Part shown: piece by piece, positions 3,438 through 50,746 of the stretch
Numbering within the stretch: the stretch's first letter is position 1
How the letters are laid out: each line of letters begins with the position of its first letter
The notes under the pieces: model-generated
The model's input: only the letters and a program-made list of their open reading frames with translations
What the model was told of the DNA's origin: nothing
Databases searched by the model: none
Translations under genes and position numbers: made by a program
DNA from: Candidatus Limnocylindria bacterium
GTDB taxonomy: Bacteria; Chloroflexota; Limnocylindria; QHBO01
Length of the DNA: 64,000 bases
Reading direction: 5' to 3'
Assembly: GCA_036004845.1 (NCBI GenBank)
Contig: DASYRA010000001.1
Coordinates: 282-64,281, forward strand

Positions 3438-7778
<4,341 letters not shown>

Positions 7779-36021: not shown

Positions 36022-36035
36022 GAGCGCCACAGACG

Positions 36036-37865
36036 ATGTGCGGCATCGTGGGGTACGTCGGCCCGCGGGACGCGGCGCCGATCCTGCTGGAGGGGCTTCG
36101 CCGCCTGGAGTACCGGGGCTACGACTCGGCCGGCCTTGCCGTGCTCACCGACGCCGGAGAGGTCTTCGTCGAGAAGAAGGCGGGAAAGCTCGCGAACCTG
36201 ACCGAGCACCTCAACGGCGGCGCTCCCGCCGGGCACCCCGGCATCGCCCACACCCGCTGGGCGACCCACGGCCGCCCGAACGACGCCAACGCCCATCCGC
36301 ATCGCGACTGCTCCGGTCGCCTGGCCCTGATCCACAACGGGATCATCGAGAACTACGCCGAGATCAAGGAGCGCCTGCAGGCCGCCGGCCATCGGTTCAC
36401 CTCGGAGACCGACACCGAGGTCCTGGCTCACCTCATCGAGGAGCGCTACGACGGCGACCTGGTTGAGGCGGTACGGGATGCCCTCAACCAGGTGCGGGGC
36501 GCGTACGCGATCGGCGTGATGCACCTCGATCATCCCAACCGCATCGTCGGGGCGCGGATGAACGTGCCGCTGATCGTCGGCCTCGGGAACGGCGAGGGGT
36601 TCCTGGCGAGCGACGTGCCGGCGATCCTGGAGCACACCAAGAACATCGTCATCCTGCAGGAGGGCGACATCGCCGACGTGACGCCGGAGGGGGTCACCAT
36701 CATCGGCATGGATGGCGTCCAGGTCGATCGACCCGTCACCAGGATTCGCTGGAACATCGCCGCGGCCGAGAAGGGTGGCTTCCCGCACTTCACCCTGAAG
36801 GAGATCTACGAGCAGCCGCACGCCATCGGCGAGGCGCTGCGCGGGCGGGTCGACGAGGCCGGCAACCTGCGCCTCTCCGAGCTCGATGCGATCGAGGAGA
36901 AGCTTCGCGCCGTGGAGCGGGTGTACGTCGTGGGCTGCGGCACGGCACGCTACGCCGCGGAGGTCGGAGCGCACCTGATCCAGAGCTGGGCCGGCCTTCC
37001 GGCGAGCGGCCAGATCGGCTCCGAGATGCGCTATTCGCCGCCACCGATCGACGGGAAGACGCTCGTCATCAGCGTCAGCCAATCGGGCGAGACGGCCGAT
37101 ACCCTCGCACCCCAGAAGCTCGCCTCCGAGCGCGGCGCGGTGATCGTGGTGGTCACCAACGTCGTCGGCAGCGCCCTCACCCGCGAGGCCGATGCGGTCT
37201 GCTACCTGCAGGCCGGGCCCGAGGTGGCGGTCGCGTCGACGAAGGCCTTCGTCACCCAGGTGGTCGTGCTCGAGATGATCGCCCTGCACCTGGCGCAACT
37301 GCGCGGCACGCTGAGCGAACGACGCCGCCGGTCGTTCGGGCTTGCCCTGCGCGACCTCCCGGGCCAGGCGGCCGAGGTGCTCAAGCTCGCCCCCCAGGTG
37401 AAGAAGCTCGCCAGGCGCTGGGGAGGGGTCCGGGACGTGATGTTCGTCGGACGGGCGCTGGGGTTCCCAGTCGCGATGGAGGGGGCGCTGAAGCTCAAGG
37501 AGCTCTCCTACGTGCACGCGGAGGGGTACGCCGCCGGCGAGCTGAAGCACGGGCCGATCGCCCTGCTGGACCCGCACACCCCGCTGGTGGCCATCGCCAC
37601 CAGGGGTGCCACCTACGAGAAGGTGGTCAGCAACGTCGCCGAGGTGCATGCCCGGGAGGCGCCGGTGGTCGCGGTCGCCACCGTCGGCGACGAGATGATC
37701 GATCGCTACGCGCAGGACGTGCTGTACGTGCCTGAGACGCCCGAGGAGATGGCCCCGGTGATCGCGATCATCCCGCTCCAGCTGCTTGCCTACGAGGTGG
37801 CCGTGGCACGAGGCACGGACGTCGACCAGCCCCGTAACCTGGCGAAGTCGGTCACGGTCGAATAG
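36036..37865 (+). CDS. glmS: Glutamine--fructose-6-phosphate aminotransferase
   Basis: MCGIVGYVG N-terminal nucleophile. Tandem SIS domains (SQSGETADT). C-terminal KSVTVE. Confidence 0.97.
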   Translation: MCGIVGYVGPRDAAPILLEGLRRLEYRGYDSAGLAVLTDAGEVFVEKKAGKLANLTEHLNGGAPAGHPGIAHTRWATHGRPNDANAHPHRDCSGRLALIHNGIIENYAEIKERLQAAGHRFTSETDTEVLAHLIEERYDGDLVEAVRDALNQVRGAYAIGVMHLDHPNRIVGARMNVPLIVGLGNGEGFLASDVPAILEHTKNIVILQEGDIADVTPEGVTIIGMDGVQVDRPVTRIRWNIAAAEKGGFPHFTLKEIYEQPHAIGEALRGRVDEAGNLRLSELDAIEEKLRAVERVYVVGCGTARYAAEVGAHLIQSWAGLPASGQIGSEMRYSPPPIDGKTLVISVSQSGETADTLAPQKLASERGAVIVVVTNVVGSALTREADAVCYLQAGPEVAVASTKAFVTQVVVLEMIALHLAQLRGTLSERRRRSFGLALRDLPGQAAEVLKLAPQVKKLARRWGGVRDVMFVGRALGFPVAMEGALKLKELSYVHAEGYAAGELKHGPIALLDPHTPLVAIATRGATYEKVVSNVAEVHAREAPVVAVATVGDEMIDRYAQDVLYVPETPEEMAPVIAIIPLQLLAYEVAVARGTDVDQPRNLAKSVTVE

Positions 37866-37884
37866 CCACCGCCGCATTGCCGCG

Positions 37885-38265
37885 ATGAGCCGCCACGAGA
37901 TCGGCGTCGATCTGATCGACATCGACCGCATCATCGCGACCCTCGGCCGCTTTCCCGACCGATTTCGCGAGCGCGTCCTGACCGAGGGCGAAGCGCACTA
38001 CTGTGGCGTGAAGGCCGAGCGCATCGCCGGTCGCTGGGCCGCCAAGGAGGCAATTAGTAAGGTGCTGGGCCTGGGCGTCCGCGGCGTCGGCTGGCGCGAG
38101 ATCGAGATCCTCCCCAACTGGGCCGGCGCCCCGCAGGTCCGCCTGCATGCCCGGGCCGCCGCTCGGGCCGCCGCGCTCGGGCTCGAGGACGTGAGCGTGA
38201 CCATCTCGCACGAACGACACATGGCGGTGGCGGTGGCGGTGGCGCACCGGGCGGCGGACGCCTAG
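37885..38265 (+). CDS. acpS: Holo-[acyl-carrier-protein] synthase
   Basis: IGVDLIDIDRI..., RWAAKEAISKVLG, ISHERHMAVA. In-frame ATG in track ORF 37786..38265. Confidence 0.9.
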   Translation: MSRHEIGVDLIDIDRIIATLGRFPDRFRERVLTEGEAHYCGVKAERIAGRWAAKEAISKVLGLGVRGVGWREIEILPNWAGAPQVRLHARAAARAAALGLEDVSVTISHERHMAVAVAVAHRAADA

Positions 38266-38269
38266 GCCG

Positions 38270-39172
38270 ATGGCGGTCGTCGGCCTGACCCAGGGATGGG
38301 TCGCCAAGCGACTCCCGGAGCGACCGGCGAGGGCGCACAAGGGCAGCTTCGGCCGGCTGCTGATCGTCGCGGGCTCGCTGGAGTACGCGGGCGCGGCCCT
38401 CCTGACGGGGCTCGGCGCCATCCGCGCCGGGGTCGGCCTCGCGTGCCTGGCCACACCCGAGGCGGTGGGCACTCGACTGATGGGCCTCGTCCCCGAGCTG
38501 ACGTCGATGCTGCTTATCGAGGAGGCGCCCGGCCTCACCGCCCCCGCCGGCTGGCGCCAGCTTGCGACCGAGGCTGCCGGCTACCAGGCCTTTGTCATCG
38601 GTCCGGGCCTTGGCCGGCAGCCGGCAACCCTCCGTCGGGCGCGCAACTTCATCGGCGGTCTGCGCCTCCCCGCCGTCGTCGACGCGGATGGGCTCACCGC
38701 CCTGGCGGAGGTCCAGCGCTGGTGGCAGCCGCTGCGGGCGCCGCTGGTGCTCACCCCGCACGCCGGCGAGTTCGCCCGGCTCATGCGGATGGCTCCCGGC
38801 GAGTCGCTTGCCGACGACGACGCCCAGCGCGCGGAGGCGGCTCGCGACGCGGCGACCAGCTGGGGCCAGATCGTTGTGCTGAAGGGCGCTCACACCGTGA
38901 TCGCGTCTCCAACCGGCGACCTGCTCCGCTCCGACATCGCCACACCTGCCCTTGCCACGGCGGGCAGCGGAGACGTCCTGGCCGGCGCGATCGGCGCTTT
39001 CCTGGCGGCCGGGATGGACCCGTTCGAGGCAGCCGGATGCGGGGTGGCCGTGCACGGCGCGGCCGGCCTGCTGGCCGAGGATCGGATCGGCCAGACGGGC
39101 GTCGTTGCGCGCGACATCGCCAACCTGCTTCCCGCGGCAATCCAGCAGCTTCGCGGCGGGCGCCAGGGATGA
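38270..39172 (+). CDS. nnrD: ADP-dependent NAD(P)H-hydrate dehydratase (YjeF C-terminal family)
   Basis: RPARAHKGSFGRLLIVAGSLEYAGAALL, VIGPGLG, LTPHAGEF, GSGDVLAG. Confidence 0.88.
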   Translation: MAVVGLTQGWVAKRLPERPARAHKGSFGRLLIVAGSLEYAGAALLTGLGAIRAGVGLACLATPEAVGTRLMGLVPELTSMLLIEEAPGLTAPAGWRQLATEAAGYQAFVIGPGLGRQPATLRRARNFIGGLRLPAVVDADGLTALAEVQRWWQPLRAPLVLTPHAGEFARLMRMAPGESLADDDAQRAEAARDAATSWGQIVVLKGAHTVIASPTGDLLRSDIATPALATAGSGDVLAGAIGAFLAAGMDPFEAAGCGVAVHGAAGLLAEDRIGQTGVVARDIANLLPAAIQQLRGGRQG

Positions 39173-40323
39173 GCGCCGCCCCGCAGCGCAGCCCGCATCG
39201 AGCCTGGATCGAGGTCGACCACACCGCACTGGCCGGCAACCTGGCGGAGCTGCGCCGGCTTGCCGGCGGGGAGACGAGCGTGATCGCCGTGGTGAAGGCC
39301 AACGCCTACGGCCACGGCGCGATCGAGGTGTCCCGGACCCTGCTCGACCACGGCGCGGAGCGCCTCGCCGTGGCCACCCTGGGGGAGGGGCTCGAGCTGC
39401 GCGAGGCGGGGATTGCGGCACCGATCCTGGTCCTGTGGGCGCTGGGGACTCCCGAGGCGGAGCGGGCCGTGGCCGCCGACCTGGAGCCGGTCGTGTACGA
39501 CGTGGCAGGCGTCGAGCTGCTCGATCGGGCGGCGGCCGCGCTCGGTCGTCGCGCCTCGGTCCAGCTCAAGATCGACTCCGGGCTGGGGCGGCAGGGGAGC
39601 GAGCCGGGACTCGCGGTCGAGCTGGCGCTGCGCATCGCACGCAGCCGGCATCTTCGGCTCACCGGGACCTTCAGCCACCTCGCGGTCCCCGGCGAGGACG
39701 AGGCCCATACCGACGTACAGCTGCTTCGGCTCGCCCAGGCCCTCGACGCCATGCGTTCGGCGGGAGCCGATCCTGGGATGGTCCACGTCGCGGCCACCGG
39801 CGGCATCCTTGGTGGCGCCGGCACCTTCGGCGACGCGATTCGGCCCGGGCTGGGCCTGTACGGCATGGTCCCCGGCTGGGCCGCCGAGCGGGACGTGGGG
39901 CTGCGCCCGGTCCTCTCGCTGCGGGCCCTCCCGCTCCGCATCTTCAACCTGGCGGCCGGTGAGGGGATCGGGTACGGGCTTCGCTTCCGCGCAGAGCGCG
40001 CGACCCGCATCGCCACGCTGGGGATCGGCTATGGGGACGGGTGGCCGCGGGTCCACGCCAACAACGGCTGGGTCCTGGTGCGCGGCGAGCGTCGGCCGAT
40101 CGTCGGGGCCGTGAGCATGGATGGCATCACGGTCGATCTGGGCGATCTTGATGATGTAACCTACGCCGACGAGTTCGTCCTGATCGGCGAGCAGATGCGC
40201 GCCCGCATCGACGCCGATGAGGTCGCCGCCCAGCGACGCACCATCAACTACGAAGTGACGACCGCCCTTCGTGACCGCCTCCCGCGCGTGCATCTGCCGG
40301 AGGTGGCTGCGAACGCAGGGTGA
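39169..40323 (+). CDS. alr: Alanine racemase
   Basis: AWIEVDHTALAGNLAELR, PLP-lysine motif VVKANAYGHG, ATLGIGYGDGWPR. ATGA overlap with nnrD. Confidence 0.94.
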   Translation: MSAAPQRSPHRAWIEVDHTALAGNLAELRRLAGGETSVIAVVKANAYGHGAIEVSRTLLDHGAERLAVATLGEGLELREAGIAAPILVLWALGTPEAERAVAADLEPVVYDVAGVELLDRAAAALGRRASVQLKIDSGLGRQGSEPGLAVELALRIARSRHLRLTGTFSHLAVPGEDEAHTDVQLLRLAQALDAMRSAGADPGMVHVAATGGILGGAGTFGDAIRPGLGLYGMVPGWAAERDVGLRPVLSLRALPLRIFNLAAGEGIGYGLRFRAERATRIATLGIGYGDGWPRVHANNGWVLVRGERRPIVGAVSMDGITVDLGDLDDVTYADEFVLIGEQMRARIDADEVAAQRRTINYEVTTALRDRLPRVHLPEVAANAG

Positions 40324-40342
40324 GGCCGTCGAGCGAGCAGCC

Positions 40343-40615
40343 ATGCGTGTCTGGAGGGTGCAAGTGAAGCGGGCCGACGCCCTCGCCGATGAGCTCGAAC
40401 GACGGGGAGTCGGGGGGCCCGCCGCGATCCTGATGGACGCCCATCGGCCACTCCTGCCTCTGCTGCGCCAGGGCTCCATCTTCCTTGGCCCGCTCCTGAG
40501 CCCGTTGCTCGGTCCGCGCCGGTTCGGCGCCCTGCGCGGGGTCCTCGAGGACCCGACCGCCTACGACCACATCGCTGCCCGGCTGCGGGGCGAGGGTCGG
40601 GACCGCTCGCGCTAG
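40343..40615 (+). CDS. Hypothetical small protein (90 aa), first gene of the unknown operon
   Basis: ATG 40343, in frame in track ORF 40271..40615. Stop TAG abuts the next ATG. Hydrophobic LPLLRQGSIFLGPLLSPLLGP segment. No family recognised. Confidence 0.4.
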   Translation: MRVWRVQVKRADALADELERRGVGGPAAILMDAHRPLLPLLRQGSIFLGPLLSPLLGPRRFGALRGVLEDPTAYDHIAARLRGEGRDRSR

Positions 40616-41458
40616 ATGCCCAACCTCGGCGAGCTCGCCTCCTACCTTGTCAGTCTGGTGACTGATGCCGTCGGCTCGTCCTCGATGCGACTTGGTGCGG
40701 CCCCAACGGTCTCCATCCTGATCGTGTTGCTCGCACTCCTGTCGCTCGCCGCGCGACCCGGAGTGCGGTGGACCGCCTCCGACCTCGGCGGGCTGGCCCG
40801 CGTCGGCCGCATGATGGCGCTCGCCGCCGAGGCCGGCAACGACGCGACGATCCAGCTGGGCAGCGCGGGCGTCAGCCGCGCGGCATCGGCGACCGACCGC
40901 TTTCAGACCCTTGGCGCCCTGCCACTGCTGGGCCACGTGGCTGATGCCGCCGCCCGGGCGGGCGTCGCGCTGCGGGTGACGACCAACGACCCTGTTGCGG
41001 CGTTGCTCGCACAGTCGACCCTGGCCCAGGCGCATGAGCGCACCGCAACCCCCGAGCGCGCCTCCTCGGCGGCGGTCGAATACGTGGGCGAGGGCCGGCC
41101 CGCCGCCGCCGCGTTCGCCCTCGCCACGGCCCAGCCGCACGGCGTGGCGGTGGTGGCCGGCGGCCTCGCTGAGGAGGCCATCCTGGTTCTCGACGGGGTG
41201 CTCGGCGACGCGGAGTGGAGCCTCGCCGCCACGGCCAGCGGCTCCCAGCTGGCGGGACCGTTGCTGAGCGGCGATGCGAGCCTGGTTGGGCCGGCCTTCT
41301 TCCAGGCGGCCGGCGAGATCGGTGCCCGCGGTCAGGCGAGAACCGCGGTGCTCGCCGCCAATCGCCTGATCTGGGGCGCCATCGGGCTCCTCCTGGTCGG
41401 CTCGCTAATCACCTGGGCCGGCGGGCCTGAGGTCGCTGCCTTCCTGACGGGACGCTGA
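40616..41458 (+). CDS. Hypothetical membrane-anchored protein (280 aa)
   Basis: N-terminal TM (TVSILIVLLALLSLAA) and C-terminal TM (LIWGAIGLLLVGSLITWAG) flank an Ala-rich soluble region. G/C third-position bias fits this frame. Confidence 0.6.
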   Translation: MPNLGELASYLVSLVTDAVGSSSMRLGAAPTVSILIVLLALLSLAARPGVRWTASDLGGLARVGRMMALAAEAGNDATIQLGSAGVSRAASATDRFQTLGALPLLGHVADAAARAGVALRVTTNDPVAALLAQSTLAQAHERTATPERASSAAVEYVGEGRPAAAAFALATAQPHGVAVVAGGLAEEAILVLDGVLGDAEWSLAATASGSQLAGPLLSGDASLVGPAFFQAAGEIGARGQARTAVLAANRLIWGAIGLLLVGSLITWAGGPEVAAFLTGR

Positions 41459-41463
41459 CCGCG

Positions 41464-42081
41464 ATGCGTCGCTCGATCCTCGCCGGCACCGTCCTGGTGA
41501 CGGGGCTGCTGGTCCTGCTGGACCTGATGATCGTGAACCCATCCCTGGACGTCGCGGCGGGGGCCGTAAACGAGCTGCTCGTCCTCCTTGCAGCCGGGGC
41601 CGCCGTGGGCGGCGGGGCGACGCTGGTCGCCCATCACGCTCGCACCCTGGCGGCGGGCGGCGGCGATTCGACCGGGTCGATCGTGCTGCTGGTCGGGATG
41701 GCGGCGATCCTGCTGGCCGGCCTGCGACCGGGCTCGACGGGCAGCTCCGACCCGGTGGTGGTCTGGCTGGTGGCGGCGCTGCTGGCGCCGATCGCGGCCT
41801 CGGTCTTCGCCCTCCTCTTCATCTTCCTGCTCGGCGCCTTCCGCCGCGGGTTCACGCTCCGCGTGCGGGAGACATCGCTGATGGCGGGCGCCGCGGCCGT
41901 GGTGATCGCCCTGCTCCTCCCGGTCGGGGGCGCGGCCGGCGACTGGCTGGCCGCGGGCGCCGGCTGGATGCGCGACGTGCCGCTCGCCGGGGTCTTCCGC
42001 GGCCTGCTGATCGGGATCGGGATCCTGGTCGCCGTCAGCGCCGCTCGCTCCCTGATGGCCCTCGACCGCGATGACGAATAG
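41464..42081 (+). CDS. Hypothetical polytopic membrane protein (205 aa)
   Basis: About 5-6 hydrophobic helices (GTVLVTGLLVLLDLMIV, LLVLLAAGAAVGG, IVLLVGMAAILLAGL, VVVWLVAALLAPIAASVFALLFIFLLGAF...). Confidence 0.65.
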   Translation: MRRSILAGTVLVTGLLVLLDLMIVNPSLDVAAGAVNELLVLLAAGAAVGGGATLVAHHARTLAAGGGDSTGSIVLLVGMAAILLAGLRPGSTGSSDPVVVWLVAALLAPIAASVFALLFIFLLGAFRRGFTLRVRETSLMAGAAAVVIALLLPVGGAAGDWLAAGAGWMRDVPLAGVFRGLLIGIGILVAVSAARSLMALDRDDE

Positions 42082-42943
42082 CGTCGGCCCGACCCCCGCA
42101 ATTGGCGAGGGCGCGGCTCGCCTGCGCCGCGCCGTCCCGACCCTGCTCCTCGTCCTTGCGCTGGTGGTGGCTACCCTGCTCTCCGGCGGCATCGATGGCC
42201 TGCGACTGGCCAGCCCGGACCGATCGCATGTCGATCAGCTGCGCGCGGCGATCGGGGATCTTCCGGATCGCGCCGTGGTCCTGATCGCCTGCGATGCGGA
42301 CCTGGGGACCTACCCCGAGATCAGGGCGACGACGCGTGCCGCGATCGACGACCTGTCGGCCAGGGGTGCGCGTCTTGCGATCGTCAGCTTCACGCCGGAG
42401 GGGCGCGCCATCGCTGCGGCCGAGCGTGATCGGATCACGCGCATCGGGACGGAGGACCCGCCGGCTGACCTCGGCTTCGTGGCGGGTGCGGAGGCCGGGC
42501 TGGTGCGGAGCATCGCGTCGCTCGTCCCGGACGGCGCCGAGGGCGCCATCTTCGATGCGATCCGTGAGCGCGGCGGTGGCATCGGCGCCTTTGACATGGT
42601 GCTGATCGTTTCGGGAAGCGACATCTCGGCACGCAGCTGGGTCGAGCAGGTGGGCAGCCGTCTCCCGGACCTGTCGATGGTCGCCATCGCCCCCACCTTC
42701 CTGGACCCTGAGCTGGAGCCCTACCTTCGTTCCGGCCAGCTGACGGCGCTCCTCTCCACGCTGCGCGAGGGGGTGGCCTACGCCGAGGTCGTCACAGCTG
42801 GATCGACGTCCAGCCCCGGGCCGACCCCGGGCCCGCTGCCGATGCTGGTTGGCATGCTCGTCGCGCTGGCCGTGCTCGCCGAAGGCGCCTTCCGTCGGCT
42901 CGTGCGCCGCGGGCGGCGCGCTCCCGGTCGATCGCCGTCGTGA
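42071..42943 (+). CDS. Hypothetical bitopic protein (290 aa): N- and C-terminal TM anchors around an alpha/beta-like domain
   Basis: TM LLLVLALVVATLLSGG near the N-terminus and LPMLVGMLVALAVLAEGAF near the C-terminus. 11-nt overlap with the preceding ORF. Confidence 0.65.
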   Translation: MTNSVGPTPAIGEGAARLRRAVPTLLLVLALVVATLLSGGIDGLRLASPDRSHVDQLRAAIGDLPDRAVVLIACDADLGTYPEIRATTRAAIDDLSARGARLAIVSFTPEGRAIAAAERDRITRIGTEDPPADLGFVAGAEAGLVRSIASLVPDGAEGAIFDAIRERGGGIGAFDMVLIVSGSDISARSWVEQVGSRLPDLSMVAIAPTFLDPELEPYLRSGQLTALLSTLREGVAYAEVVTAGSTSSPGPTPGPLPMLVGMLVALAVLAEGAFRRLVRRGRRAPGRSPS

Positions 42944-43584
42944 ACGGCTTCGCCGGAGCCGACCTGAGCGGGACCGTGGCAACCTGGTTCGCGGCGATCG
43001 CCACAATTGCGGTGTGGTCCTACCTGGTCGGTTCGCGGCGGCTCTTCGTGCTGATGCAGCACCTGCTTGCCGGCCTCGCGACGGGGTACCTGGTGTTGCT
43101 CGCGATCCGTGACGTGCTGGTGCCACGCCTCGCCGCCCCGCTGATCGAGCATCCGCGGGACCACGTGCTGCTCCTCCCGGCGCTGGTCCTGGTGGGGATG
43201 CTGGTCGCCGGGTCGTGGCTCCCTCGACGAGCGGTGGCCCCCGCCGGCGCGATCCTGGTCGGCGGGATCGCCGCCTTCGCCCTTGGCGGCGCCGTCGTGG
43301 GAACGATCCTGCCCCAGGTCGCGGCCGCACTTCCGGCGGTCACCCCAGCCACGTCCGACCTGGTGGGTGGGGTGATCTCGCTGGCCATCACCTCGCTCGT
43401 GCTGATCGCGTTCCTGCACGGGGCTCCGCGAGGCAGGCTGACGACGCGGGCGGCGACGATGGGTCGCTGGCTCCTGGTCGGGGGCATCGGCGGATGGCTC
43501 GGCTTCCTGGTCGTCAGCCGCCTGTCGCTGCTCGTCGACCGGATCGCGTTCCTCCTCGGCGATTGGCTGACGGTGCTCCGATGA
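42940..43584 (+). CDS. Hypothetical polytopic membrane protein (214 aa)
   Basis: About 6 hydrophobic helices. GTGA overlap upstream and ATGA overlap downstream. Confidence 0.65.
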   Translation: MNGFAGADLSGTVATWFAAIATIAVWSYLVGSRRLFVLMQHLLAGLATGYLVLLAIRDVLVPRLAAPLIEHPRDHVLLLPALVLVGMLVAGSWLPRRAVAPAGAILVGGIAAFALGGAVVGTILPQVAAALPAVTPATSDLVGGVISLAITSLVLIAFLHGAPRGRLTTRAATMGRWLLVGGIGGWLGFLVVSRLSLLVDRIAFLLGDWLTVLR

Positions 43585-45248
43585 CGATCGACGCCCGTGC
43601 GCGAGAGCCCGGCCGCGCCACCGCCGAGCTGTCGCTCCTGGTGGATATCGGCTCCGCCTGGACGAAGGCGGCCGTGGTCGGCCGCGCGATGGGCCGATGG
43701 AGGATCGCGGCGCACGCTGCGCAGCCGAGCGCCTGGGACGAGGGCGAGCTGATCGCCACGCTCGCGGCACGCCTCACCGGCCGGGCCGATGCTCGCGTCT
43801 CGGGACGAATCGCGACGCTGCTGGCCGATGCTCCGCGCATCGCCGTCCACACCCCCGCCCGACCCGGACGGATCGCCCTTGCCGCCGTCTCGTCCGAGCT
43901 CTCCGGCCAGGCGGCTCGAAGCGCTGCGGAGGCGGCCGGCTGGGTCGTCGTCGAGGCGGTGATGGTCGACGACGGCCGCGCCGTGGTCGACCGGCTCTCG
44001 GCGCTGCAGTCTGCCGAGGTCGACGCCTGGCTCATCGCCGGCGGGTTCGACGAGGAGGGTGGGGAGGGTGCGCTCGAGGTGGCCGGCCTGGTCGCGGCGG
44101 CGCGCGGCGGCGGCCGATCTCCCGTGGTGTGGGCCGGCTCGGCCGGCCTCACCGAGCGGGTCGGCGCCTTCTTCGAGCCCGGCGTCCTGCGGGCGGTCGC
44201 CAACCCGCGTCCCTCGGCGGACCGCGAGAACCTCCTCCCCCTGCGGCGGTACCTCGATGGCCTGATCGAGCGCCTCGTCGAGCGCGGGACGGCGCGGCAG
44301 CTTGCGCCGATCGGGTTCGGCAGGGCAGTGGCCGAGCTCGCCCGCGCAGCGCGCCTGCGGGTGGTGGGGGTGGACCTGGGTGCCCGATACGCGACCTGGG
44401 CCAGCGCCGATGAGAACGGCATGGCTGAGAGCCGAGTCGTCGCGCTCGGTGGCCTTGCTTCACCGACCCTGACCGCTCCGGGCGGTCCGGCGCGGATCGC
44501 CCACAGCCTGCCGCTGGCGATCGACGAGCTGGCCGTGGCGGATGCGCTCCAGAACCTGCGCGCGCGGCCGGGATCGATCCCACAGACGGACGAGGAGCTG
44601 GCGGTGGTCCACGGGGCGGCTCGCGACCTGCTCGGCGATCTGGCGACGAGTGGGCCGCAGCCGGGAGGAATCGACCTGCTGATCGGCTCGGGCCGCACCA
44701 TCGCCGGCGCGCCGCTGCCCGCCCAGGCGATGCAGATGCTGCTCGACGGCATTCGACCGATCGGGATCGTGCAGGTCGCGATCGACCCCGCCGGAGCGCT
44801 CGGCCCGCTGGGGGCGCTGCGCGACGATGAGATCGTGGAGGGCCTCGGGACGCTGCGCGACGACCTGCTGACACCGCTCGGCGCCGCGGTGGTCTGTCGC
44901 GGCGGGCGACCGGGCCACTTCTCGATGCGGGTCACGGTCCATCGGGTCGGCTGGCGCTCGCTCGGTCCGATCGAGGTGCGTCCCGGACAGCTGGAGGTGG
45001 TGCCGCTCCCGCGCGGCCAGGTGGCCGAGCTGGAGATCGAGGTCGATCCGGCGGTGAGCCTCGGCGCTCCTCGCCGCACTCGCCGGCTGCGCGCCTCGGT
45101 GACCGGCGGCGCGGTCGGCGTGGTCCTGGACGCGCGCGACGCCCCGCTCATCTTGCCGCGGCGCAGCGACGATCGGCGCGCGGTGCTGGGCGGATGGCGC
45201 GATACGTTCGTGCGCGAGGTTCGGCCTCCGACCGAGGGGGTGGCATGA
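43581..45248 (+). CDS. GlmL/MutL-like (glutamate-mutase-L family) actin-fold (ASKHA) ATPase, 555 aa
   Basis: LLVDIGSAWTKAAVV resembles the DxGSTxTK phosphate-1 motif. LIAGGFDEEGGEG resembles the GGxDGG motif. Second ASKHA-like repeat VVGVDLGARYATWA and IDLLIGSGRTIAG. In-frame ATG of track ORF 43215..45248. Confidence 0.7.
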   Translation: MTIDARAREPGRATAELSLLVDIGSAWTKAAVVGRAMGRWRIAAHAAQPSAWDEGELIATLAARLTGRADARVSGRIATLLADAPRIAVHTPARPGRIALAAVSSELSGQAARSAAEAAGWVVVEAVMVDDGRAVVDRLSALQSAEVDAWLIAGGFDEEGGEGALEVAGLVAAARGGGRSPVVWAGSAGLTERVGAFFEPGVLRAVANPRPSADRENLLPLRRYLDGLIERLVERGTARQLAPIGFGRAVAELARAARLRVVGVDLGARYATWASADENGMAESRVVALGGLASPTLTAPGGPARIAHSLPLAIDELAVADALQNLRARPGSIPQTDEELAVVHGAARDLLGDLATSGPQPGGIDLLIGSGRTIAGAPLPAQAMQMLLDGIRPIGIVQVAIDPAGALGPLGALRDDEIVEGLGTLRDDLLTPLGAAVVCRGGRPGHFSMRVTVHRVGWRSLGPIEVRPGQLEVVPLPRGQVAELEIEVDPAVSLGAPRRTRRLRASVTGGAVGVVLDARDAPLILPRRSDDRRAVLGGWRDTFVREVRPPTEGVA

Positions 45249-46285
45249 TCGAGGCGTCGCTGCACCGCATCCACCTGCCGCGCGGGACGGTCGTCAGCGT
45301 GCGCGTCGGTGCCGAGATCAGGCCCGACGAGGTGATCGGCCTGCGGCGGGGAGCGCTGGCACCGGTCCGGGTGCCAGTCACGCGCGCGCTGCATCGCCAG
45401 CCCGGCGAGATCGAGCAGCTGCTCGTGGTGCGGCCCGGTGAGCGAGTCGAGGCCGAGCAGCCGCTGGCAGTGGTCGAAGGTGCGGGCGTGGTGCTTGCCC
45501 CGGTCGCCGGGCTGGTGCTGGCGGCCTCGGGACGCGACGGGACGCTCCTGCTCGCGCCGCTCGGCTCCGAGGAGACGGTGATCGGCCACGTTCGGGGTCG
45601 GGTGCGCGCCGTCGAGGAGGGTTCGCTGGTGGTCGAGGTCCCCGCGGCCAGGCTGCACGGGGTCGGGGGCAGCGGCGAGGCCGTCCACGGAGAGCTGGTG
45701 GTCGGGGTGCCGAATCCCGGTGACGAGCTCCGGGCGGCTGCGATCGATGCGGGTGCCACCGGCAAGATCCTGGTCGGTGGGTCGCGAGCCTCGGCCGAGA
45801 CGCTGACCCGAGCCCGGGCGATGGGGGTTGCCGGCATCGTGCTCGGCGGTGTCCTGGATAAGGAGCTGCGCGACTTCGAGGCGATTCAGCGACGCCGACG
45901 CGAGGCCGGGGGCATGACCGGATCGTTTGGAATCCTGCTGGTCGAAGGGTTCGGCAAGGTCGGGATCGACCCGCAGCTGTTCGCCTGGTTCCGCACTCAC
46001 GCGGGGCGGGTCGCAAGCCTCTTCGGAGCCGATGGGCTGCTCTATGTCTATGACGCTGCCCCCGTGCCGATGCGTCGTGCGCTGGCCGCGGTGGGGGATC
46101 GGGTGATCGCCCATCGACGCCCGTTCCAGGGACGGGGCGGGGTGCTGGTCGCGCTGCTCGAGGAGCTGCACAGCGCGCAATCGGGCATTCCGACGCGCAT
46201 GGCCCTCGTTCGCTTCGAGGACGGTCGCCTCGCGCCGGTGCCGCTGGCCAACGTCGAGGCCACGGTGCTGCCCGAGGGCCGCTGA
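45245..46285 (+). CDS. Hypothetical protein (346 aa): N-terminal barrel-sandwich-hybrid-like and C-terminal KOW-like segments
   Basis: GERVEAEQPLAVVEGAGVVLAPVAGLV resembles lipoyl/biotinyl-type hybrid barrels, with no Lys at the attachment position. C-terminus GDRVIAHRRPFQGRGGVLVAL. ATGA overlap upstream. Confidence 0.65.
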   Translation: MIEASLHRIHLPRGTVVSVRVGAEIRPDEVIGLRRGALAPVRVPVTRALHRQPGEIEQLLVVRPGERVEAEQPLAVVEGAGVVLAPVAGLVLAASGRDGTLLLAPLGSEETVIGHVRGRVRAVEEGSLVVEVPAARLHGVGGSGEAVHGELVVGVPNPGDELRAAAIDAGATGKILVGGSRASAETLTRARAMGVAGIVLGGVLDKELRDFEAIQRRRREAGGMTGSFGILLVEGFGKVGIDPQLFAWFRTHAGRVASLFGADGLLYVYDAAPVPMRRALAAVGDRVIAHRRPFQGRGGVLVALLEELHSAQSGIPTRMALVRFEDGRLAPVPLANVEATVLPEGR

Positions 46286-46311
46286 TCGGCCGCTCCCGTA
46301 TCCTTCGGAGC

Positions 46312-46809
46312 ATGGAAGGGCTGGGCTCGCACGCAGATGCCGCGGGAAGCCTGCGCACCGCGGCGGCACGGGAGACGAGGGCGATCGGGCAGGCGCTCGG
46401 CTCTCACGCGCGCGCCGGGGCCCTGGTTGCCCTCATCGGACCGCTGGGAGCCGGCAAGACGGAGCTGGCCAAGGGCGTCGCGGAGGGGCTGGGCATCACG
46501 AGCGTCGTCAACAGCCCCACCTTCGTGTTGATGAACGAGCACGTCGGCCGGTTGCGGCTCTTCCACATCGACGCCTACCGCCTCGACGACCCGGAGGAGG
46601 CGATCGCGGCAGGCCTCTTCGACGATCGACAGGCTGCCGGCGTGGCGGTGGTGGAGTGGGCCGACCGCCTCGGCGATCGGCTGCCCGCGGAGCGGCTGGA
46701 GCTGACGCTGCAGCCCGAGCCGGAGGGGAGCGACCGGCGCAGCATCACCTGGCGGGCGCTGGGCGCCGCCCATCTGCGCCTCGCCGGCGAGGCACTGGCG
46801 CAGCGATGA
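46312..46809 (+). CDS. tsaE: tRNA t6A37 biosynthesis ATPase TsaE
   Basis: LVALIGPLGAGKTELAKGVAEGLGI, VNSPTFVLMNEH, HIDAYRL. Confidence 0.92.
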   Translation: MEGLGSHADAAGSLRTAAARETRAIGQALGSHARAGALVALIGPLGAGKTELAKGVAEGLGITSVVNSPTFVLMNEHVGRLRLFHIDAYRLDDPEEAIAAGLFDDRQAAGVAVVEWADRLGDRLPAERLELTLQPEPEGSDRRSITWRALGAAHLRLAGEALAQR

Positions 46810-47441
46810 TCGTGGCCATCGAGAGCGCCTCGAGCGATCCGTCGCTGGCCCTCGCCTCATCCGATGGCGAGGCCTTCGCCCAGGATGGGTGGGCGGGCGA
46901 GGGGCGCCAGGCGAGCGAGCTGCTGCCCCGCCTGCTGGTGCTGCTGGCACGGGCCGGGCGTGACTTGCGCGAGGCCACCGCGCTGGCGGTCGGGGTCGGC
47001 CCCGGCTCCTTCACCGGCCTGCGCGTCTCGATGAGCCTGGCCAAGGGGATGGCGCTCGCCCTGCGCGTGCCACTGGTCGGCGTGCCGAGCCTCGTCGCCT
47101 GGCTCGAGGCAGAGCCACGCGCCGCCGCGGCGATCTCGCGTGCCGGTGCGCAGGACACGTACCTGCTCCGCCGCAGCGATCAGGAGCCGCGGATCGTCGC
47201 CGCCTCCGACCTGCCGGCCACGGTCGGCGATGCACCGCTGGCGGCCCCGTCCGAGCTTGCTTCGACCTTCGGCCTGGTCGGGACGCTGCCGCCGCACGAG
47301 GCAGCCGCGGGAGTCGCGCGACTGGCGGCGCGGCGGCTCAGCCAGGATCCGCACGGGGACGACCTGGCGAGGCTGGAGCCCTGGTACCTCCGCCCGCCGC
47401 GGGGCGTTCCATCTCCGGAGGCGGTGATCGGATGGCCGTGA
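46806..47441 (+). CDS. tsaB: tRNA t6A37 biosynthesis protein TsaB
   Basis: MIVAIESASSDPSLALA..., VGVGPGSFTGLRVSMSLAKGMALA. ATGA overlap with tsaE. Confidence 0.9.
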   Translation: MIVAIESASSDPSLALASSDGEAFAQDGWAGEGRQASELLPRLLVLLARAGRDLREATALAVGVGPGSFTGLRVSMSLAKGMALALRVPLVGVPSLVAWLEAEPRAAAAISRAGAQDTYLLRRSDQEPRIVAASDLPATVGDAPLAAPSELASTFGLVGTLPPHEAAAGVARLAARRLSQDPHGDDLARLEPWYLRPPRGVPSPEAVIGWP

Positions 47442-47956
47442 GCGCGCCGCTGGTGGTGGGGCCGATGCGCATGGCCGACGTCGAAGCCGTCCTCGAGATC
47501 GAGCGGCTCAGCTTCAGCTCGCCATGGCCCGCATTCGCGTTCGAGCAGGAGCTGACGGCGAACCGCCTCGCGCACTATCGGGTGGCGCGTCTCGGGGACC
47601 GCGTGGTCGCCTTCGGCGGCATCTGGCTGATGGTCGACGAGGCGCACATCACCACCTTCGGCGTCCATCCCGATCATCGGCGGCGGGGGATCGGGCGACG
47701 CCTCCTGCTGCAGCTGGCCGAGGTGGCCCTTGAGCTCGGCTCCGCGCGCATGACCCTCGAGGTGCGCGTCAGCAACGAGCCCGCCCAGCGGCTGTATCGG
47801 TCCTTCGGCTTCGAGGTTGCCGGACGCCGGGTGGCGTATTACAGCGATGACGGGGAGGATGCCCTCGTGATGACGACGCCCGCCCTGACGGGACCGATCA
47901 TGCGGGCAGCGCTCGCGGCGGAGCGCGCCCGCGCCATGGAGTCCGACGTCGAATGA
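47432..47956 (+). CDS. rimI: Ribosomal-protein-alanine N-acetyltransferase (GNAT)
   Basis: VLEIERLSFSSPW, TFGVHPDHRRRGIGRRLL, LEVRVSNEPAQRLYRSFGF. Sits between tsaB and tsaD. Confidence 0.88.
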   Translation: MAVSAPLVVGPMRMADVEAVLEIERLSFSSPWPAFAFEQELTANRLAHYRVARLGDRVVAFGGIWLMVDEAHITTFGVHPDHRRRGIGRRLLLQLAEVALELGSARMTLEVRVSNEPAQRLYRSFGFEVAGRRVAYYSDDGEDALVMTTPALTGPIMRAALAAERARAMESDVE

Positions 47957-48996
47957 GCGGCCCGCGGGTGCTCGCCATCGAGACGAGCTGCGACGAGACC
48001 GGGGTGGCGGTGGTGAGCGGGGGCCGCCGGATCGCCTCGAACCAGGTGGCGACCCAGATCGCCCTGCACGCGACGACCGGCGGCATCGTCCCCGAGGTGG
48101 CCGCCCGGCAGCAGCTGCGCTGGATCGTGCCGACCATCCATGCCGCGATGGCGGAGGCGAACGCCGACTGGGACGACCTCGACGCGGTGGCGGTGACCTA
48201 CGGGCCGGGATTGATCGGCTCGCTGCTGGTCGGGGTCAACGTGGCCAAGGCGCTCGCCGTGGTCCACGACCTTCCACTGCTGGGGATCAACCACATCGAG
48301 GGCCACATCTACGCCAACTGGCTGACCGATGCGCCCGCCGAGGATCCGCTCCCCGCCGAGCCGCCCTTCCCGCTGGTGTGCCTGGTCGTCAGCGGCGGGC
48401 ACACCCAACTGGTGCTGATGCAAGACCACGGCCGCTATCAGCTCCTGGGGCAGACGGTCGACGACGCCGCCGGCGAGGCCTTCGACAAGGTCGGGCGACT
48501 GCTCGGCCTGCCGTACCCCGGCGGTCCCGCCATCAGTGCGGCCGCCGAGGGGGCGACGTCGGCGACGCGCTTCCCGAGGGCACGCACGGCGGGTGCGTAT
48601 GACTTCAGCTTCTCGGGGCTGAAGACCGCCGTCCTGCGTGAGGTCGCCGGTTACCGGGATCGCGGCGCGCCGATCCCGATCGACGGGCTCGCGGCCTCCT
48701 TTGAGGAGGCGGTGGTCGACGCCCTGGCCACCAAGACGGTGGCCGCGGCCGACGAGCACGGTGCCGCCGCGGTGGCGATCGGGGGCGGGGTGGCCGCCAA
48801 TCGGCTGCTGCGCAGCGTGTTGCGCGACCGGCTCGATGCGCTCGGGATCCCGCTCCTCGTCCCGCCGCCCGCCTGGTGCACCGACAACGGGGCGATGATC
48901 GGCGCTGCCGCCGGCTTCCGCTTCACCGCCGGGGATCGTGCCGGCGCGGCACTGGAGGCGATCCCCAACTTGTCGCTCGCGTGGACCGACGCGTGA
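47953..48996 (+). CDS. tsaD: tRNA N6-adenosine threonylcarbamoyltransferase TsaD
   Basis: VLAIETSCDETGVAVV, INHIEGHI, VSGGHTQL, GEAFDKVGRLLGLPYPGGP, IGGGVAAN. Confidence 0.96.
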   Translation: MSGPRVLAIETSCDETGVAVVSGGRRIASNQVATQIALHATTGGIVPEVAARQQLRWIVPTIHAAMAEANADWDDLDAVAVTYGPGLIGSLLVGVNVAKALAVVHDLPLLGINHIEGHIYANWLTDAPAEDPLPAEPPFPLVCLVVSGGHTQLVLMQDHGRYQLLGQTVDDAAGEAFDKVGRLLGLPYPGGPAISAAAEGATSATRFPRARTAGAYDFSFSGLKTAVLREVAGYRDRGAPIPIDGLAASFEEAVVDALATKTVAAADEHGAAAVAIGGGVAANRLLRSVLRDRLDALGIPLLVPPPAWCTDNGAMIGAAAGFRFTAGDRAGAALEAIPNLSLAWTDA

Positions 48997-49883
48997 CCGG
49001 CCCGCTCGCTCCGGAGCGCCTCGTGCCACCCACTCCCGGGCAGCTCCGTCGTCTGCTGTCCGCGGAGCGGCTCCGCCCGCGCAAGGCGCTCAGCCAGAAC
49101 TTCCTGACCGACGCGGCCGCCCTGGACGCAATCGTCGCCGCGGCCGAGCTGGTGCCCGGCGACCGGGTGGTGGAGGTCGGCCCGGGACTGGGGGTGCTCA
49201 CGCGACGCCTCCTGGCGGCCGGAGCCTCGGTCATCGCGGTCGAGCTCGATCCGCGCCTGGCGGCGTACCTGCGACGGGAGCTGAGCTCGGCCCCGGGCTT
49301 CGAGCTGATCGAGGCCGATGCCCTCTCCCTTCACCCACGCGACTGCTTCCCGGGTGAGGACTTCAAGCTCGTCGCCAACATCCCGTACCACATCACCAGC
49401 CCGCTGCTCCACGCCTTTCTGGAGGGCGAGCGACCCCCGCTGGTGTCGGTGTTGCTGGTCCAGGCGGAGGTTGCCACGCGGGTCGCGGCCGCCCCGGGTC
49501 AGATGAGCTACCTGTCGGTCTTCGTCCAGAACGTGGTCGAGGCCGAGATCGTGGGGCACGTCGCCGCCTCGGCCTTCGAGCCGGAGCCGGATGTCGACTC
49601 GGCCATCCTGCGCCTGCGTCGCCGCGCGATGCCCCAGGTCCCGGTGGGTCCGGGGCGGGAGCCCTTCTATCGGCTGGTCCAGGCCGGATTTCGGCAGCGT
49701 CGGAAGCAGCTGCACAATGCGCTCGGCCGGGAGCTGCCGGTGCCGCGGGCGACTCTGGCCGGCGCCTTCGCGGCCTGCGGCATCGACTCGGAGCGCCGGG
49801 CGCAGACCCTTTCGCTTGGCGAGTGGGACTGCCTGAACGAGCACCTTGAAGGGCTCCTCGGCACGGGGGCGGAGGACGATTGA
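48993..49883 (+). CDS. rsmA: 16S rRNA (adenine1518/1519-N6)-dimethyltransferase
   Basis: LSQNFLTD, VVEVGPGLGVLT, ANIPYHITSP. GTGA overlap with tsaD. Confidence 0.93.
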   Translation: MTGPLAPERLVPPTPGQLRRLLSAERLRPRKALSQNFLTDAAALDAIVAAAELVPGDRVVEVGPGLGVLTRRLLAAGASVIAVELDPRLAAYLRRELSSAPGFELIEADALSLHPRDCFPGEDFKLVANIPYHITSPLLHAFLEGERPPLVSVLLVQAEVATRVAAAPGQMSYLSVFVQNVVEAEIVGHVAASAFEPEPDVDSAILRLRRRAMPQVPVGPGREPFYRLVQAGFRQRRKQLHNALGRELPVPRATLAGAFAACGIDSERRAQTLSLGEWDCLNEHLEGLLGTGAEDD

Positions 49884-50746
49884 CGCCGCTCAGCCTCGAG
49901 GCTCCCGCGAAGCTGAACCTGTCCCTGCGCGTGGTCGGACGGCGCCCGGACGGCTTCCACCTCCTCGAGACCGAGATGGTGATGCTCGAGCTGGCCGATC
50001 GGCTGCTCCTCCTGCCCGGCGCCAGCGGGCTGCGCGTCGAGGCGCCGCCCGATGACGACATCCCGGTCGATGAGGGCAACCTGGCCTGGCGGGGCCTCGT
50101 GGCGGGCCTTGGCGGCCCGCCCCGGCTGGCCTGCCTGACGCTCGAGAAGCGGATTCCGGCCGGCGCCGGCCTGGGCGGTGGCTCGTCGGACGCGGCCGCT
50201 GCATGGCGCCTCGGTCGACGGGCCGCGGGCCTGTCGGAGGCACCGACTCCCGGCGATGTCGCCTCACTGGCGAACCTCGGGGCCGATGTGCCGTTCTTCG
50301 CCGTCGGTGCCGCGGCGGCCACGGTGACCGGCATCGGCGAGGTCGTGACGCCCCTCGGCGGACCGACGCCGGACCACGTCATCCTGGCGCTGCCCGCCTT
50401 CCGGCTGTCGACCGCCGCCGTCTTCGGGGAGCTGCGCGCGGCCGACCTGGCGGCCGAACGCCGCGGGGGCAATGACCTGCTGGCTCCGGCGATGCGCCTG
50501 CGCCCTGAGCTCGGCGACCTGATGCGCGCGGTGTCGGCCGCGGGTGGCGAGCCGCGCCTGACGGGCTCCGGGTCGACCATCTTCGCGCTGACCGACGACG
50601 GCGAGCGGGCTGCAGCGATCGCCGCGGGACTCCGCGAGCGAGGGGTGCGGGTCAGGGAGACACGGCTGCGCCGGCAGCCCGCGCAGATCGTGGAGCTCGG
50701 CGAGGCGGCGCAGGATGCTGGCGCCTCGGCGTCGAGCATGGGATGA
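49880..50746 (+). CDS. ispE: 4-diphosphocytidyl-2-C-methyl-D-erythritol kinase
   Basis: APAKLNLSLRVVGRRPDGFHLLET, KRIPAGAGLGGGSSDAAA, LTGSGSTIFAL. TTG start overlaps the rsmA stop. Confidence 0.92.
   Translation: MTPLSLEAPAKLNLSLRVVGRRPDGFHLLETEMVMLELADRLLLLPGASGLRVEAPPDDDIPVDEGNLAWRGLVAGLGGPPRLACLTLEKRIPAGAGLGGGSSDAAAAWRLGRRAAGLSEAPTPGDVASLANLGADVPFFAVGAAAATVTGIGEVVTPLGGPTPDHVILALPAFRLSTAAVFGELRAADLAAERRGGNDLLAPAMRLRPELGDLMRAVSAAGGEPRLTGSGSTIFALTDDGERAAAIAAGLRERGVRVRETRLRRQPAQIVELGEAAQDAGASASSMG

Follow-up and report, generated by a model that had tools for sequence, protein, structure and literature searches.

A bacterial gene cluster that pairs four membrane proteins with a GlmL-family ASKHA protein, and its divergent copy in Candidatus Limnocylindria

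What kind of system is encoded by a run of seven tightly packed genes in a Candidatus Limnocylindria bacterium, and is it peculiar to that lineage? The genes, called g1 to g7 below, lie on the + strand at positions 40343-46285 of a stretch of 64,000 nucleotides (contig DASYRA010000001.1 of assembly GCA_036004845.1), which we call the window. An earlier reading of the letters alone, the sequence-only reading, had described seven consecutive + strand open reading frames (ORFs) here, and we recovered all of them with exactly the same coordinates and junctions. It took them for a functional unit, undescribed and lineage specific. We find that the cluster is undescribed and not lineage specific: no characterised pathway in Pfam, NCBIfam or PADLOC claims the seven genes, and homologues of all seven are kept together across many phyla. 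Alignments and gene order show the window copy to be a divergent, rearranged and fast-evolving Limnocylindria-like version of this widespread cluster, with 17-30% identity to the canonical members for all proteins. The products very probably form one membrane-embedded complex, to judge from synteny across phyla, two modules that travel together and the fusion of g6 to g7. That this complex is controlled from the cytoplasm by g6 and g7 is our best overall explanation, and we give it about an even chance of being right.

The seven genes are listed here with the evidence for each and with the ratio of nonsynonymous to synonymous substitutions (dN/dS), calculated against locus L084, a relative whose g6 is 84% identical to that of the window.

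g1, 40343..40615, + strand: small soluble protein of 90 amino acids (aa), assigned to the cytoplasmic module; ORF, third-position GC 0.86, dN/dS 0.29.
g2, 40616..41458, + strand: DUF6754 protein of 280 aa with one transmembrane segment before and one after its conserved domain of about 200 aa; Pfam, hydropathy, dN/dS 0.22.
g3, 41464..42081, + strand: polytopic membrane protein of 205 aa, no described family; hydropathy, dN/dS 0.24.
g4, 42071..42943, + strand: protein of 290 aa with two transmembrane anchors and an alpha/beta-type domain between them; hydropathy, alignment, dN/dS 0.29.
g5, 42940..43584, + strand: polytopic membrane protein of 214 aa, no described family; hydropathy, dN/dS 0.21.
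g6, 43581..45248, + strand: GlmL/MutL-family ASKHA (actin-fold) protein of 555 aa; Pfam MutL, AlphaFold, Foldseek, dN/dS 0.13.
g7, 45245..46285, + strand: soluble three-part protein of 346 aa, with barrel-sandwich-hybrid-type, alpha/beta and KOW parts; AlphaFold, profile, dN/dS 0.10.

From g1 to g7 the junctions are, in order, TAG followed directly by ATG, a 5-nucleotide (nt) gap, an 11-nt overlap, GTGA, ATGA and ATGA. The start of g1 is ambiguous (ATG at 40343 or GTG at 40271), and in relatives this protein is 83-105 aa long. We tested the coding signal because long ORFs occur in every frame of so GC-rich a genome (66-75% GC in the window). Across all seven frames GC is 0.85-0.94 at third positions and 0.50-0.58 at second positions, and the dN/dS values are lowest for g6 and g7; the same comparison gives 0.15 for the flanking gene alr and 0.16 for tsaE. 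The GC content and codon signature of the seven genes resemble those of their neighbours. All seven ORFs are genuine genes, and purifying selection acts on them.

Spread and gene order of the cluster

An exhaustive HMMER search with g7 returned a family of 816 clusters at 50% identity, including many matches over the full length at 24-35% identity. Four distant g7 members then served as seeds for a genome scan, which gave at least 592 confirmed matches; 80 loci were kept. At phylum level these loci represent about 12 named groups: Planctomycetota (Planctomycetia and Phycisphaerae), Acidobacteriota, Fermentibacteria/Aegiribacteria, Eisenbacteria, WOR-3, Poribacteria, Ignavibacteria, Marinimicrobia, Zixibacteria, Hydrothermota, Myxococcota and a metagenome-assembled genome (MAG) labelled Nitrospira. 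Planctomicrobium sp. SH661 and a MAG labelled Singulisphaera sp. GP187 are among them. A spread of this size refutes the claim that the genes are lineage specific.

The other six genes are found with g7. We compared the window proteins with all translated ORFs of 81 loci using phmmer. The best E-values, quoted here with the close relative L001 excluded, are 5.5e-6, 1.7e-8, 4.5e-18, 7.9e-14, 7.5e-18, 1.4e-37 and 4e-34 for g1 to g7, respectively. Homologues of all seven thus lie near g7 in those loci; iterated profiles agree, and a reciprocal search from an acidobacterial cluster gave the same result.

Gene content was counted in the 48 loci with enough flanking sequence. g6, g7 and g2-g5 occur together in 32 of the 48, and 27 of these 32 have the order g1-g6-g7-g2-g3-g4-g5. 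Planctomycetota, Acidobacteriota, Fermentibacteria, Eisenbacteria and Marinimicrobia are among the groups that contribute such loci. Three loci have only g6-g7, nine have g7 alone, and some have g1-g6-g7 only. The genes also keep their immediate neighbours: g1 homologues lie directly upstream of g6 in 45-47 loci (iterated profiles), g3 directly follows g2 in 53-54, and g5 closes the membrane module in 46-48. Immediately upstream of g1, at least 31 loci have an eighth conserved gene, g0, and the usual canonical order is g0-g1-g6-g7-g2-g3-g4-g5. Locus L082 (Vulcanimicrobiota, Candidatus Bruticola), which also has g0, shows the window's arrangement, g2-g5 and then g1-g6-g7. Compared across loci, these gene orders show two modules that travel together in either order, a cytoplasmic module (g0)-g1-g6-g7 and a membrane module g2-g3-g4-g5.

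g0, at L015:304-756, L016:6217-6657, L043:6268-6750, L082:7366-7866 and about 27 more loci: protein of about 120-240 aa with two transmembrane segments and a weak match to a bacterial PH domain (bPH_6).

The g0 profile matched none of the window ORFs even at E<=10. Set against the canonical members, the window copy is a derived, reduced version of the cluster: it has no g0, its g2 is without the FN3 domain, its g5 is shortened, and the phosphate-2 and adenosine motifs of its g6 are altered.

In the window the cluster is part of a co-directional + strand array at 34693-50746, which runs glmM, glmS, acpS, nnr, alr, the seven genes, tsaE, tsaB, rimI, tsaD, ksgA and ispE with tiny gaps or overlaps. 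The spacing to alr is 19 nt and that to tsaE 26 nt. A sequence scan of the region from 38 to 48 kb found no terminator-like or promoter-like site that would mark a transcription boundary, and the transcription unit to which the seven genes belong may be much larger. Two relatives, L084 and L001 (a 2.2-Mb contig with a g6 65% identical to that of the window), have the same seven genes in the same order. Both have cdaR(YbbR)-glmM-glmS-acpS-nnr-alr upstream and tsaE-tsaB-rimI-tsaD-ksgA-ispE downstream. The flanks that the sequence-only reading described therefore recur in both relatives, and its placing of the genes among housekeeping genes, outside any island, holds, since the flanks in the window, L001 and L084 are core genes. 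Metagenomes and MAGs labelled Chloroflexota or Candidatus Limnocylindria are the source of the close g6 and g7 homologues, at 60-95% identity. Between alr and g1, L001 has an additional Macro-domain gene (6267-6791) that neither the window nor L084 contains.

The flanks differ by lineage: alr and tsaE in the window, glycine cleavage genes in Fermentibacteria, and plsX-fabH in Planctomycetota. Because the flanking genes vary in this way, the peptidoglycan-precursor context is not conserved outside Limnocylindria. The same gene set recurs across phyla in varied genomic contexts, and core genes flank it in every lineage examined. The neighbours depend on the lineage, and among the loci examined we found no conserved one that reveals a function. 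This setting points to a chromosomal housekeeping role. Neither the seven window proteins nor three canonical proteins matched a defence family in PADLOC, and no plasmid match was found for a canonical g7; on these grounds we rejected a defence system and a mobile, plasmid-borne element.

Several side observations concern the surroundings of the cluster. A gene for a Fur-family regulator adjoins it in two unrelated genomes (L082:14002-14436 and L083:7260-7775), which may be coincidence; in L083 this gene is divergent from g1-g6-g7 and adjoins ExbB/ExbD and secretin genes. Neither a tRNA gene nor, at gathering score, an Rfam family was found in the whole 64 kb of the window. From about 1 to 30 kb the AT skew is positive, and beyond about 32 kb it is negative; between 38 and 52 kb, GC climbs to 0.73-0.75 from about 0.66-0.70.

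The cytoplasmic module

We then considered what g6 and g7, the two most constrained proteins, are related to. g6 belongs to the Pfam family MutL (PF13941), with 74.1 bits against a cutoff of 27 (E 1e-20) over profile positions 2-344 of 450, and canonical g6 proteins match this model over its full length with 412-426 bits (1e-123 to 1e-127). The AlphaFold model of the window protein (predicted local distance difference test, pLDDT, 83.4) has an ASKHA fold that includes a Rossmann-like insert and is followed by an additional beta domain of about 120 aa at the C-terminus. Hydropathy gave no transmembrane segment. Family and fold thus bear out the assignment of g6 as a GlmL/MutL-like protein with an ASKHA ATPase fold, which had been made from the letters. 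Foldseek searches returned, at probability 1.0, N-methylhydantoinase, the acetone carboxylase beta subunit, PilM, FtsA, Ppx and sugar kinases. N-methylhydantoinase and acetone carboxylase were the best of these (E 3.6e-8 and 3.5e-7, with low TM-scores of 0.25-0.30), followed by PilM and FtsA (E 8e-7 to 9e-6). Searches of PDB sequences with g6, both as a single sequence and as a profile, found nothing, and there is no GlmL-family member among those sequences.

How close is g6 to its relatives of known association? GlmL/MutL is an accessory protein of the B12-dependent glutamate mutase, and Or-4 belongs to ornithine degradation; we know of no established function for GlmL itself. g6 shares with these proteins the Pfam family, the ASKHA fold and the Rossmann-like insert, and canonical copies span the full length of the GlmL and Or-4 models of NCBIfam (5.9e-69 and 1.8e-62). 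However, the scores stay below the NCBIfam GlmL cutoffs (NF040745 and TIGR01319), at 25.5 against 475 and 23.4 against 204 for the window protein and 233 against 475 and 163 against 204 for the canonical protein of locus L023. Unlike GlmL, g6 also has the additional C-terminal domain with an invariant motif, and its gene is grouped with those of g7 and four membrane proteins, never standing beside B12 mutase genes. No mutase genes were present in the flanks of the window, in L001, L082, L083 and L084, or in one further contig, and a B12-mutase accessory set was rejected for want of mutase genes near the cluster in any locus examined. With the hydantoinase A, acetone carboxylase beta and N-methylhydantoinase group, which supplies the best Foldseek matches, g6 has in common weak Pfam matches of canonical copies to Hydantoinase_A and Hydant_A_N. 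The cluster differs from that group in having no partner of the Hydantoinase_B type, and the group leaves the membrane partners unexplained.

Canonical g6 proteins have the ASKHA motifs DCGSTTTK, DIGGATTD and GSGG. In the window protein the phosphate-1 motif is kept as DIGSAWTK, the phosphate-2 motif reads DLGARYAT, the adenosine motif reads GSGR, and the STSSAGGG loop is deleted. It retains D22, G24, S25, T28, K29, D265 and G267, of which D22 and D265 are invariant. With these two residues kept, the window protein may still bind nucleotide. It is doubtful that an ATPase energises the complex in the window copy, because the phosphate-2 and adenosine motifs of g6 are altered, and the window g6 may be mainly a scaffold.

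The C-terminal domain of g6 contains a motif, GGxVGxxLDARxxPLxLP (window positions 45120-45160, residues about 509-526), that is invariant from Limnocylindria to Planctomycetota. The model, otherwise confident, places it in a loop of low confidence (pLDDT <50 at residues 514-526). As a speculation, this motif might be a peptide for docking, with the SH3-like KOW barrel of g7 as a conceivable partner.

g7 is soluble and consists of three parts. In its AlphaFold model (pLDDT 89.9), residues of about 1-155 form beta domains, about 170-270 an alpha/beta domain and about 280-341 a KOW barrel; a hydrophobic stretch at 74-92 is a beta strand. A match of the family profile to the Spt5 KOW domain (1.3e-8) agrees with the earlier description of g7 as a soluble, barrel/KOW-like protein. 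The single window sequence is below the Pfam cutoff for KOW (PF00467), and the KOW identity rests on the family profile and on local Foldseek matches. Against the PDB, Foldseek found local KOW/Tudor barrels only, with no whole-chain analogue, and a PDB sequence search with the single g7 found nothing. Distant members of the family match RnfC_N, NqrA_N or Biotin_lipoyl near the cutoffs, and NqrA appeared weakly in a PDB profile search (E 0.21). NqrA and RnfC are soluble components of the membrane complexes Na+-NQR and Rnf; their domain order, a barrel-sandwich hybrid, an alpha/beta domain and a small barrel, loosely parallels that of g7. However, window g7 matches neither model and has no whole-chain structural match. 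An Rnf/Nqr-type complex, with its paralogous membrane subunits (RnfA/RnfE or NqrD/NqrE type) and its flavin or Fe-S subunits, was rejected: g3 and g5 are not paralogues, and there were no Rnf-Nqr, FMN_bind or Fer4 matches.

In two loci (L015:1155-4175 and L073:15-2063) one ORF encodes g6 and g7 as a fusion. The L015 fusion is 1006 aa long, with g6 at residues 4-599 and g7 at 630-1002. By the Rosetta-stone argument, this speaks for a complex in which the two proteins work together, as do their dN/dS values, the lowest of the seven. The small protein g1, the third of this module, has an orthologue in L001 at E 1.4e-13 and a conserved core, rPL..gaQ..F..P...fLE. Like g3, g4, g5 and g7 of the window, it falls in no Pfam or NCBIfam family.

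A side observation concerns g7 in WOR-3. Four loci of this group, L028 (5819-9001), L042, L058 and L077, have a gene for a 1060-aa TMEM260-like GT-C glycosyltransferase with tetratricopeptide (TPR) repeats, which ends where g7 starts. None of g6 and g2-g5 lies within 9 kb in these four loci.

The membrane module

The membrane calls of the sequence-only reading agree with hydropathy: g2 and g4 have two segments each, and g3 and g5 are polytopic. Its statement that no family could be recognised beyond the ATPase fold fails for g2, which belongs to Pfam DUF6754 (PF20539; 32.7 bits against a cutoff of 27, E 6e-8). Canonical g2 homologues match this family at about 1e-120 with about 400 bits. The hydrophobic segments of window g2 lie at about 28-46 and 244-262, and the positive-inside rule predicts that the conserved domain of about 200 aa between them is cytoplasmic. 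The N-terminus of canonical g2 has a signal peptide and an FN3 domain (its profile matches the FN3 domains of titin and fibronectin at 1.9e-26), and the alignment shows that window g2 lacks both. A PDB profile search with g2 found FN3 domains only and no relative of the DUF6754 core.

g4 consists of a short conserved N-tail, a first transmembrane segment (about 23-41), the alpha/beta-type domain, a second segment (about 256-274) and a basic C-tail. In the alignment D75, E83, D129, Q223 and Y237 are invariant and D77 is nearly so, as is the N-tail motif LDRRW. From the positive-inside rule we infer that the acidic alpha/beta domain faces outward and that the N-tail is cytoplasmic. The homologue in L068 is recognised by phmmer at 7.9e-14, and a PDB profile search with g4 found no relative.

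The two polytopic proteins, g3 and g5, both have their phmmer match in L062 (4.5e-18 and 7.5e-18). The canonical motif of g3 is LAFyvASAAFRAFRAkN.EA. Window g5 is shorter at the N-terminus, 214 aa against a canonical median of 326 aa. An hhalign comparison of g3 with g5 gave a probability of 0.1, and the two are not paralogues. Pfam searches with the enlarged g3, g2 and g5 variants and the extra genes of L082 gave no informative fused domain.

Four membrane proteins are thus encoded beside an ASKHA protein, as the earlier proposal of a membrane complex with an actin-fold protein had it. Actin-fold proteins with membrane partners have precedents in PilM and FtsA, which bind the cytoplasmic tails of bitopic membrane proteins. 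The PilM-PilN-PilO and FtsA-FtsN systems resemble the cluster in pairing a cytoplasmic ASKHA protein with membrane partners that have outward-facing domains, and PilM and FtsA rank high among the structures similar to g6. Like PilN, g4 has a short, nearly invariant cytoplasmic N-tail in front of a transmembrane segment. However, g2-g5 have no sequence relation to PilN, PilO or FtsN, and the likeness is one of fold and N-tail only. In addition, g6 is nearer to the hydantoinase/GlmL proteins, and there are no pilus or divisome genes nearby.

A membrane complex and its possible activities

How might the two modules act together? In the scheme that we favour, g6, bound to g7 and the small g1, would dock on the cytoplasmic face of the membrane module, with the DUF6754 domain of g2 and the conserved N-tail of g4 as candidate docking sites. 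g6 would be a nucleotide-dependent switch or chaperone and not a filament; we read it in this way because the proteins related to it are enzymes or accessory proteins and do not form filaments. It would gate or assemble an activity in or beyond the membrane, carried by g3, g5 and the outward domain of g4. In canonical copies the FN3 domain of g2 would also be involved in that activity. The scheme resembles PilM or FtsA acting on bitopic partners. We put forward this mechanism of docking and switching, taken as a whole, tentatively, and would sooner expect it to need revision than to hold.

Several points weigh against control of a single complex by g6 and g7. The contacts are putative, and the topologies are predictions from hydropathy and the positive-inside rule only. 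The relatives of g6 whose role is known are soluble enzymes or accessory proteins of B12 enzymes, not membrane scaffolds. The altered motifs of window g6 are hard to reconcile with an essential ATP-driven step, though D22 and D265 are kept. The structure of g7 yielded no functional clue. Finally, the nine of 48 loci with g7 alone and the few with only g6-g7 indicate that parts of the cluster can be encoded apart and possibly work apart.

A primary transporter is an unlikely reading. In such a transporter g3 and g5, with g2, would form the path, g4 would supply a tethered substrate-binding domain, and g6-g7 would be the energising or gating unit. The presence of two conserved polytopic proteins, the outward-facing alpha/beta domain of g4 with its invariant acidic residues and the full ATP-binding motifs of canonical g6 are in keeping with it, and the barrel-sandwich-hybrid domain of g7 recalls NqrA and RnfC, soluble subunits seated on membrane subunits. 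Yet no transporter is known to be powered by an ASKHA protein of the GlmL/hydantoinase type. g3 and g5, besides not being paralogues, match no transporter family in Pfam or NCBIfam, and the window cluster is under purifying selection even though the ATP motifs of its g6 are altered.

A membrane-anchored metabolic or cofactor-handling complex is a reading that we consider improbable. g6 would then act as an ATP-dependent reactivase or cofactor exchanger like GlmL, EutA or DdrA, or, like hydantoinase A, would phosphorylate a small substrate that the membrane proteins deliver or hold. The full-length alignment of canonical g6 to the GlmL and Or-4 models and the N-methylhydantoinase and acetone carboxylase structures at the head of the Foldseek matches fit this idea, as would a weak match to a B12-binding domain in the Rossmann-like insert of one homologue. 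That match is not significant, however (E 0.093), and both the canonical and the window scores fall far short of the equivalog cutoff of 475. The loci examined have no B12-dependent mutase, hydantoinase B or carboxylase subunit beside the cluster, and the FN3 domain and the outward-facing domain of g4 would be left unexplained.

We regard as quite improbable the version of the sequence-only reading, a Chloroflexota-specific envelope or morphogenesis machine tied to peptidoglycan-precursor genes and built on a polymerising actin-like ATPase. The cluster does lie, in Limnocylindria, always between glmM-glmS-acpS-nnr-alr and tsaE, and g6 has an actin fold with PilM and FtsA among its structural neighbours. 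But the cluster occurs in many phyla with flanks that vary by lineage, and g6 belongs to the hydantoinase/GlmL branch, outside the filament-forming branches. An envelope role as such may apply to the cluster, but the arguments put forward for it do not stand. That there is no single system here, and that the genes are packed by chance in a compact genome or form a mobile or defence island, is barely credible: close spacing is indeed unremarkable in a long co-directional array with tiny gaps throughout, but the gene set recurs across phyla in different contexts and with g6-g7 fusions, and the absence of PADLOC families and plasmid matches and the neighbour-like GC and codon signature argue against an island.

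We return to the complex controlled by g6 and g7. Taken over all its holders, namely, the Planctomycetota, the Acidobacteriota, many candidate phyla of the Fibrobacterota-Chlorobiota-Bacteroidota (FCB) group, the Vulcanimicrobiota and some Chloroflexota, the cluster could be an ancient eight-component machine for a core envelope or membrane housekeeping task, of which the Limnocylindria-like copy would be a natural minimal version. We judge the chances for and against this to be balanced. In the databases and the searchable literature, as far as they reach, we found no characterised counterpart of the cluster: a literature search returned nothing relevant on DUF6754, PF13941 or GlmL/ASKHA proteins with membrane partners, and a 2025 review of the Planctomycetota omits these genes.

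A chromosomal multi-protein unit that is conserved among core genes in at least a dozen phyla represents a sizeable gap in bacterial cell biology. Its absence from the usual model organisms would explain why it was missed. Since the cluster is present in cultured, genetically tractable Planctomycetota, the question of its function is directly testable. An answer would give the first functional context for the large Pfam MutL/GlmL family outside B12 metabolism and for DUF6754, and the first context for the new three-domain architecture of g7 and for four unnamed families of membrane and small proteins. The window copy, for its part, shows which parts of the system are dispensable, namely, g0, the FN3 domain and the canonical ATP motifs, as opposed to those that are indispensable.

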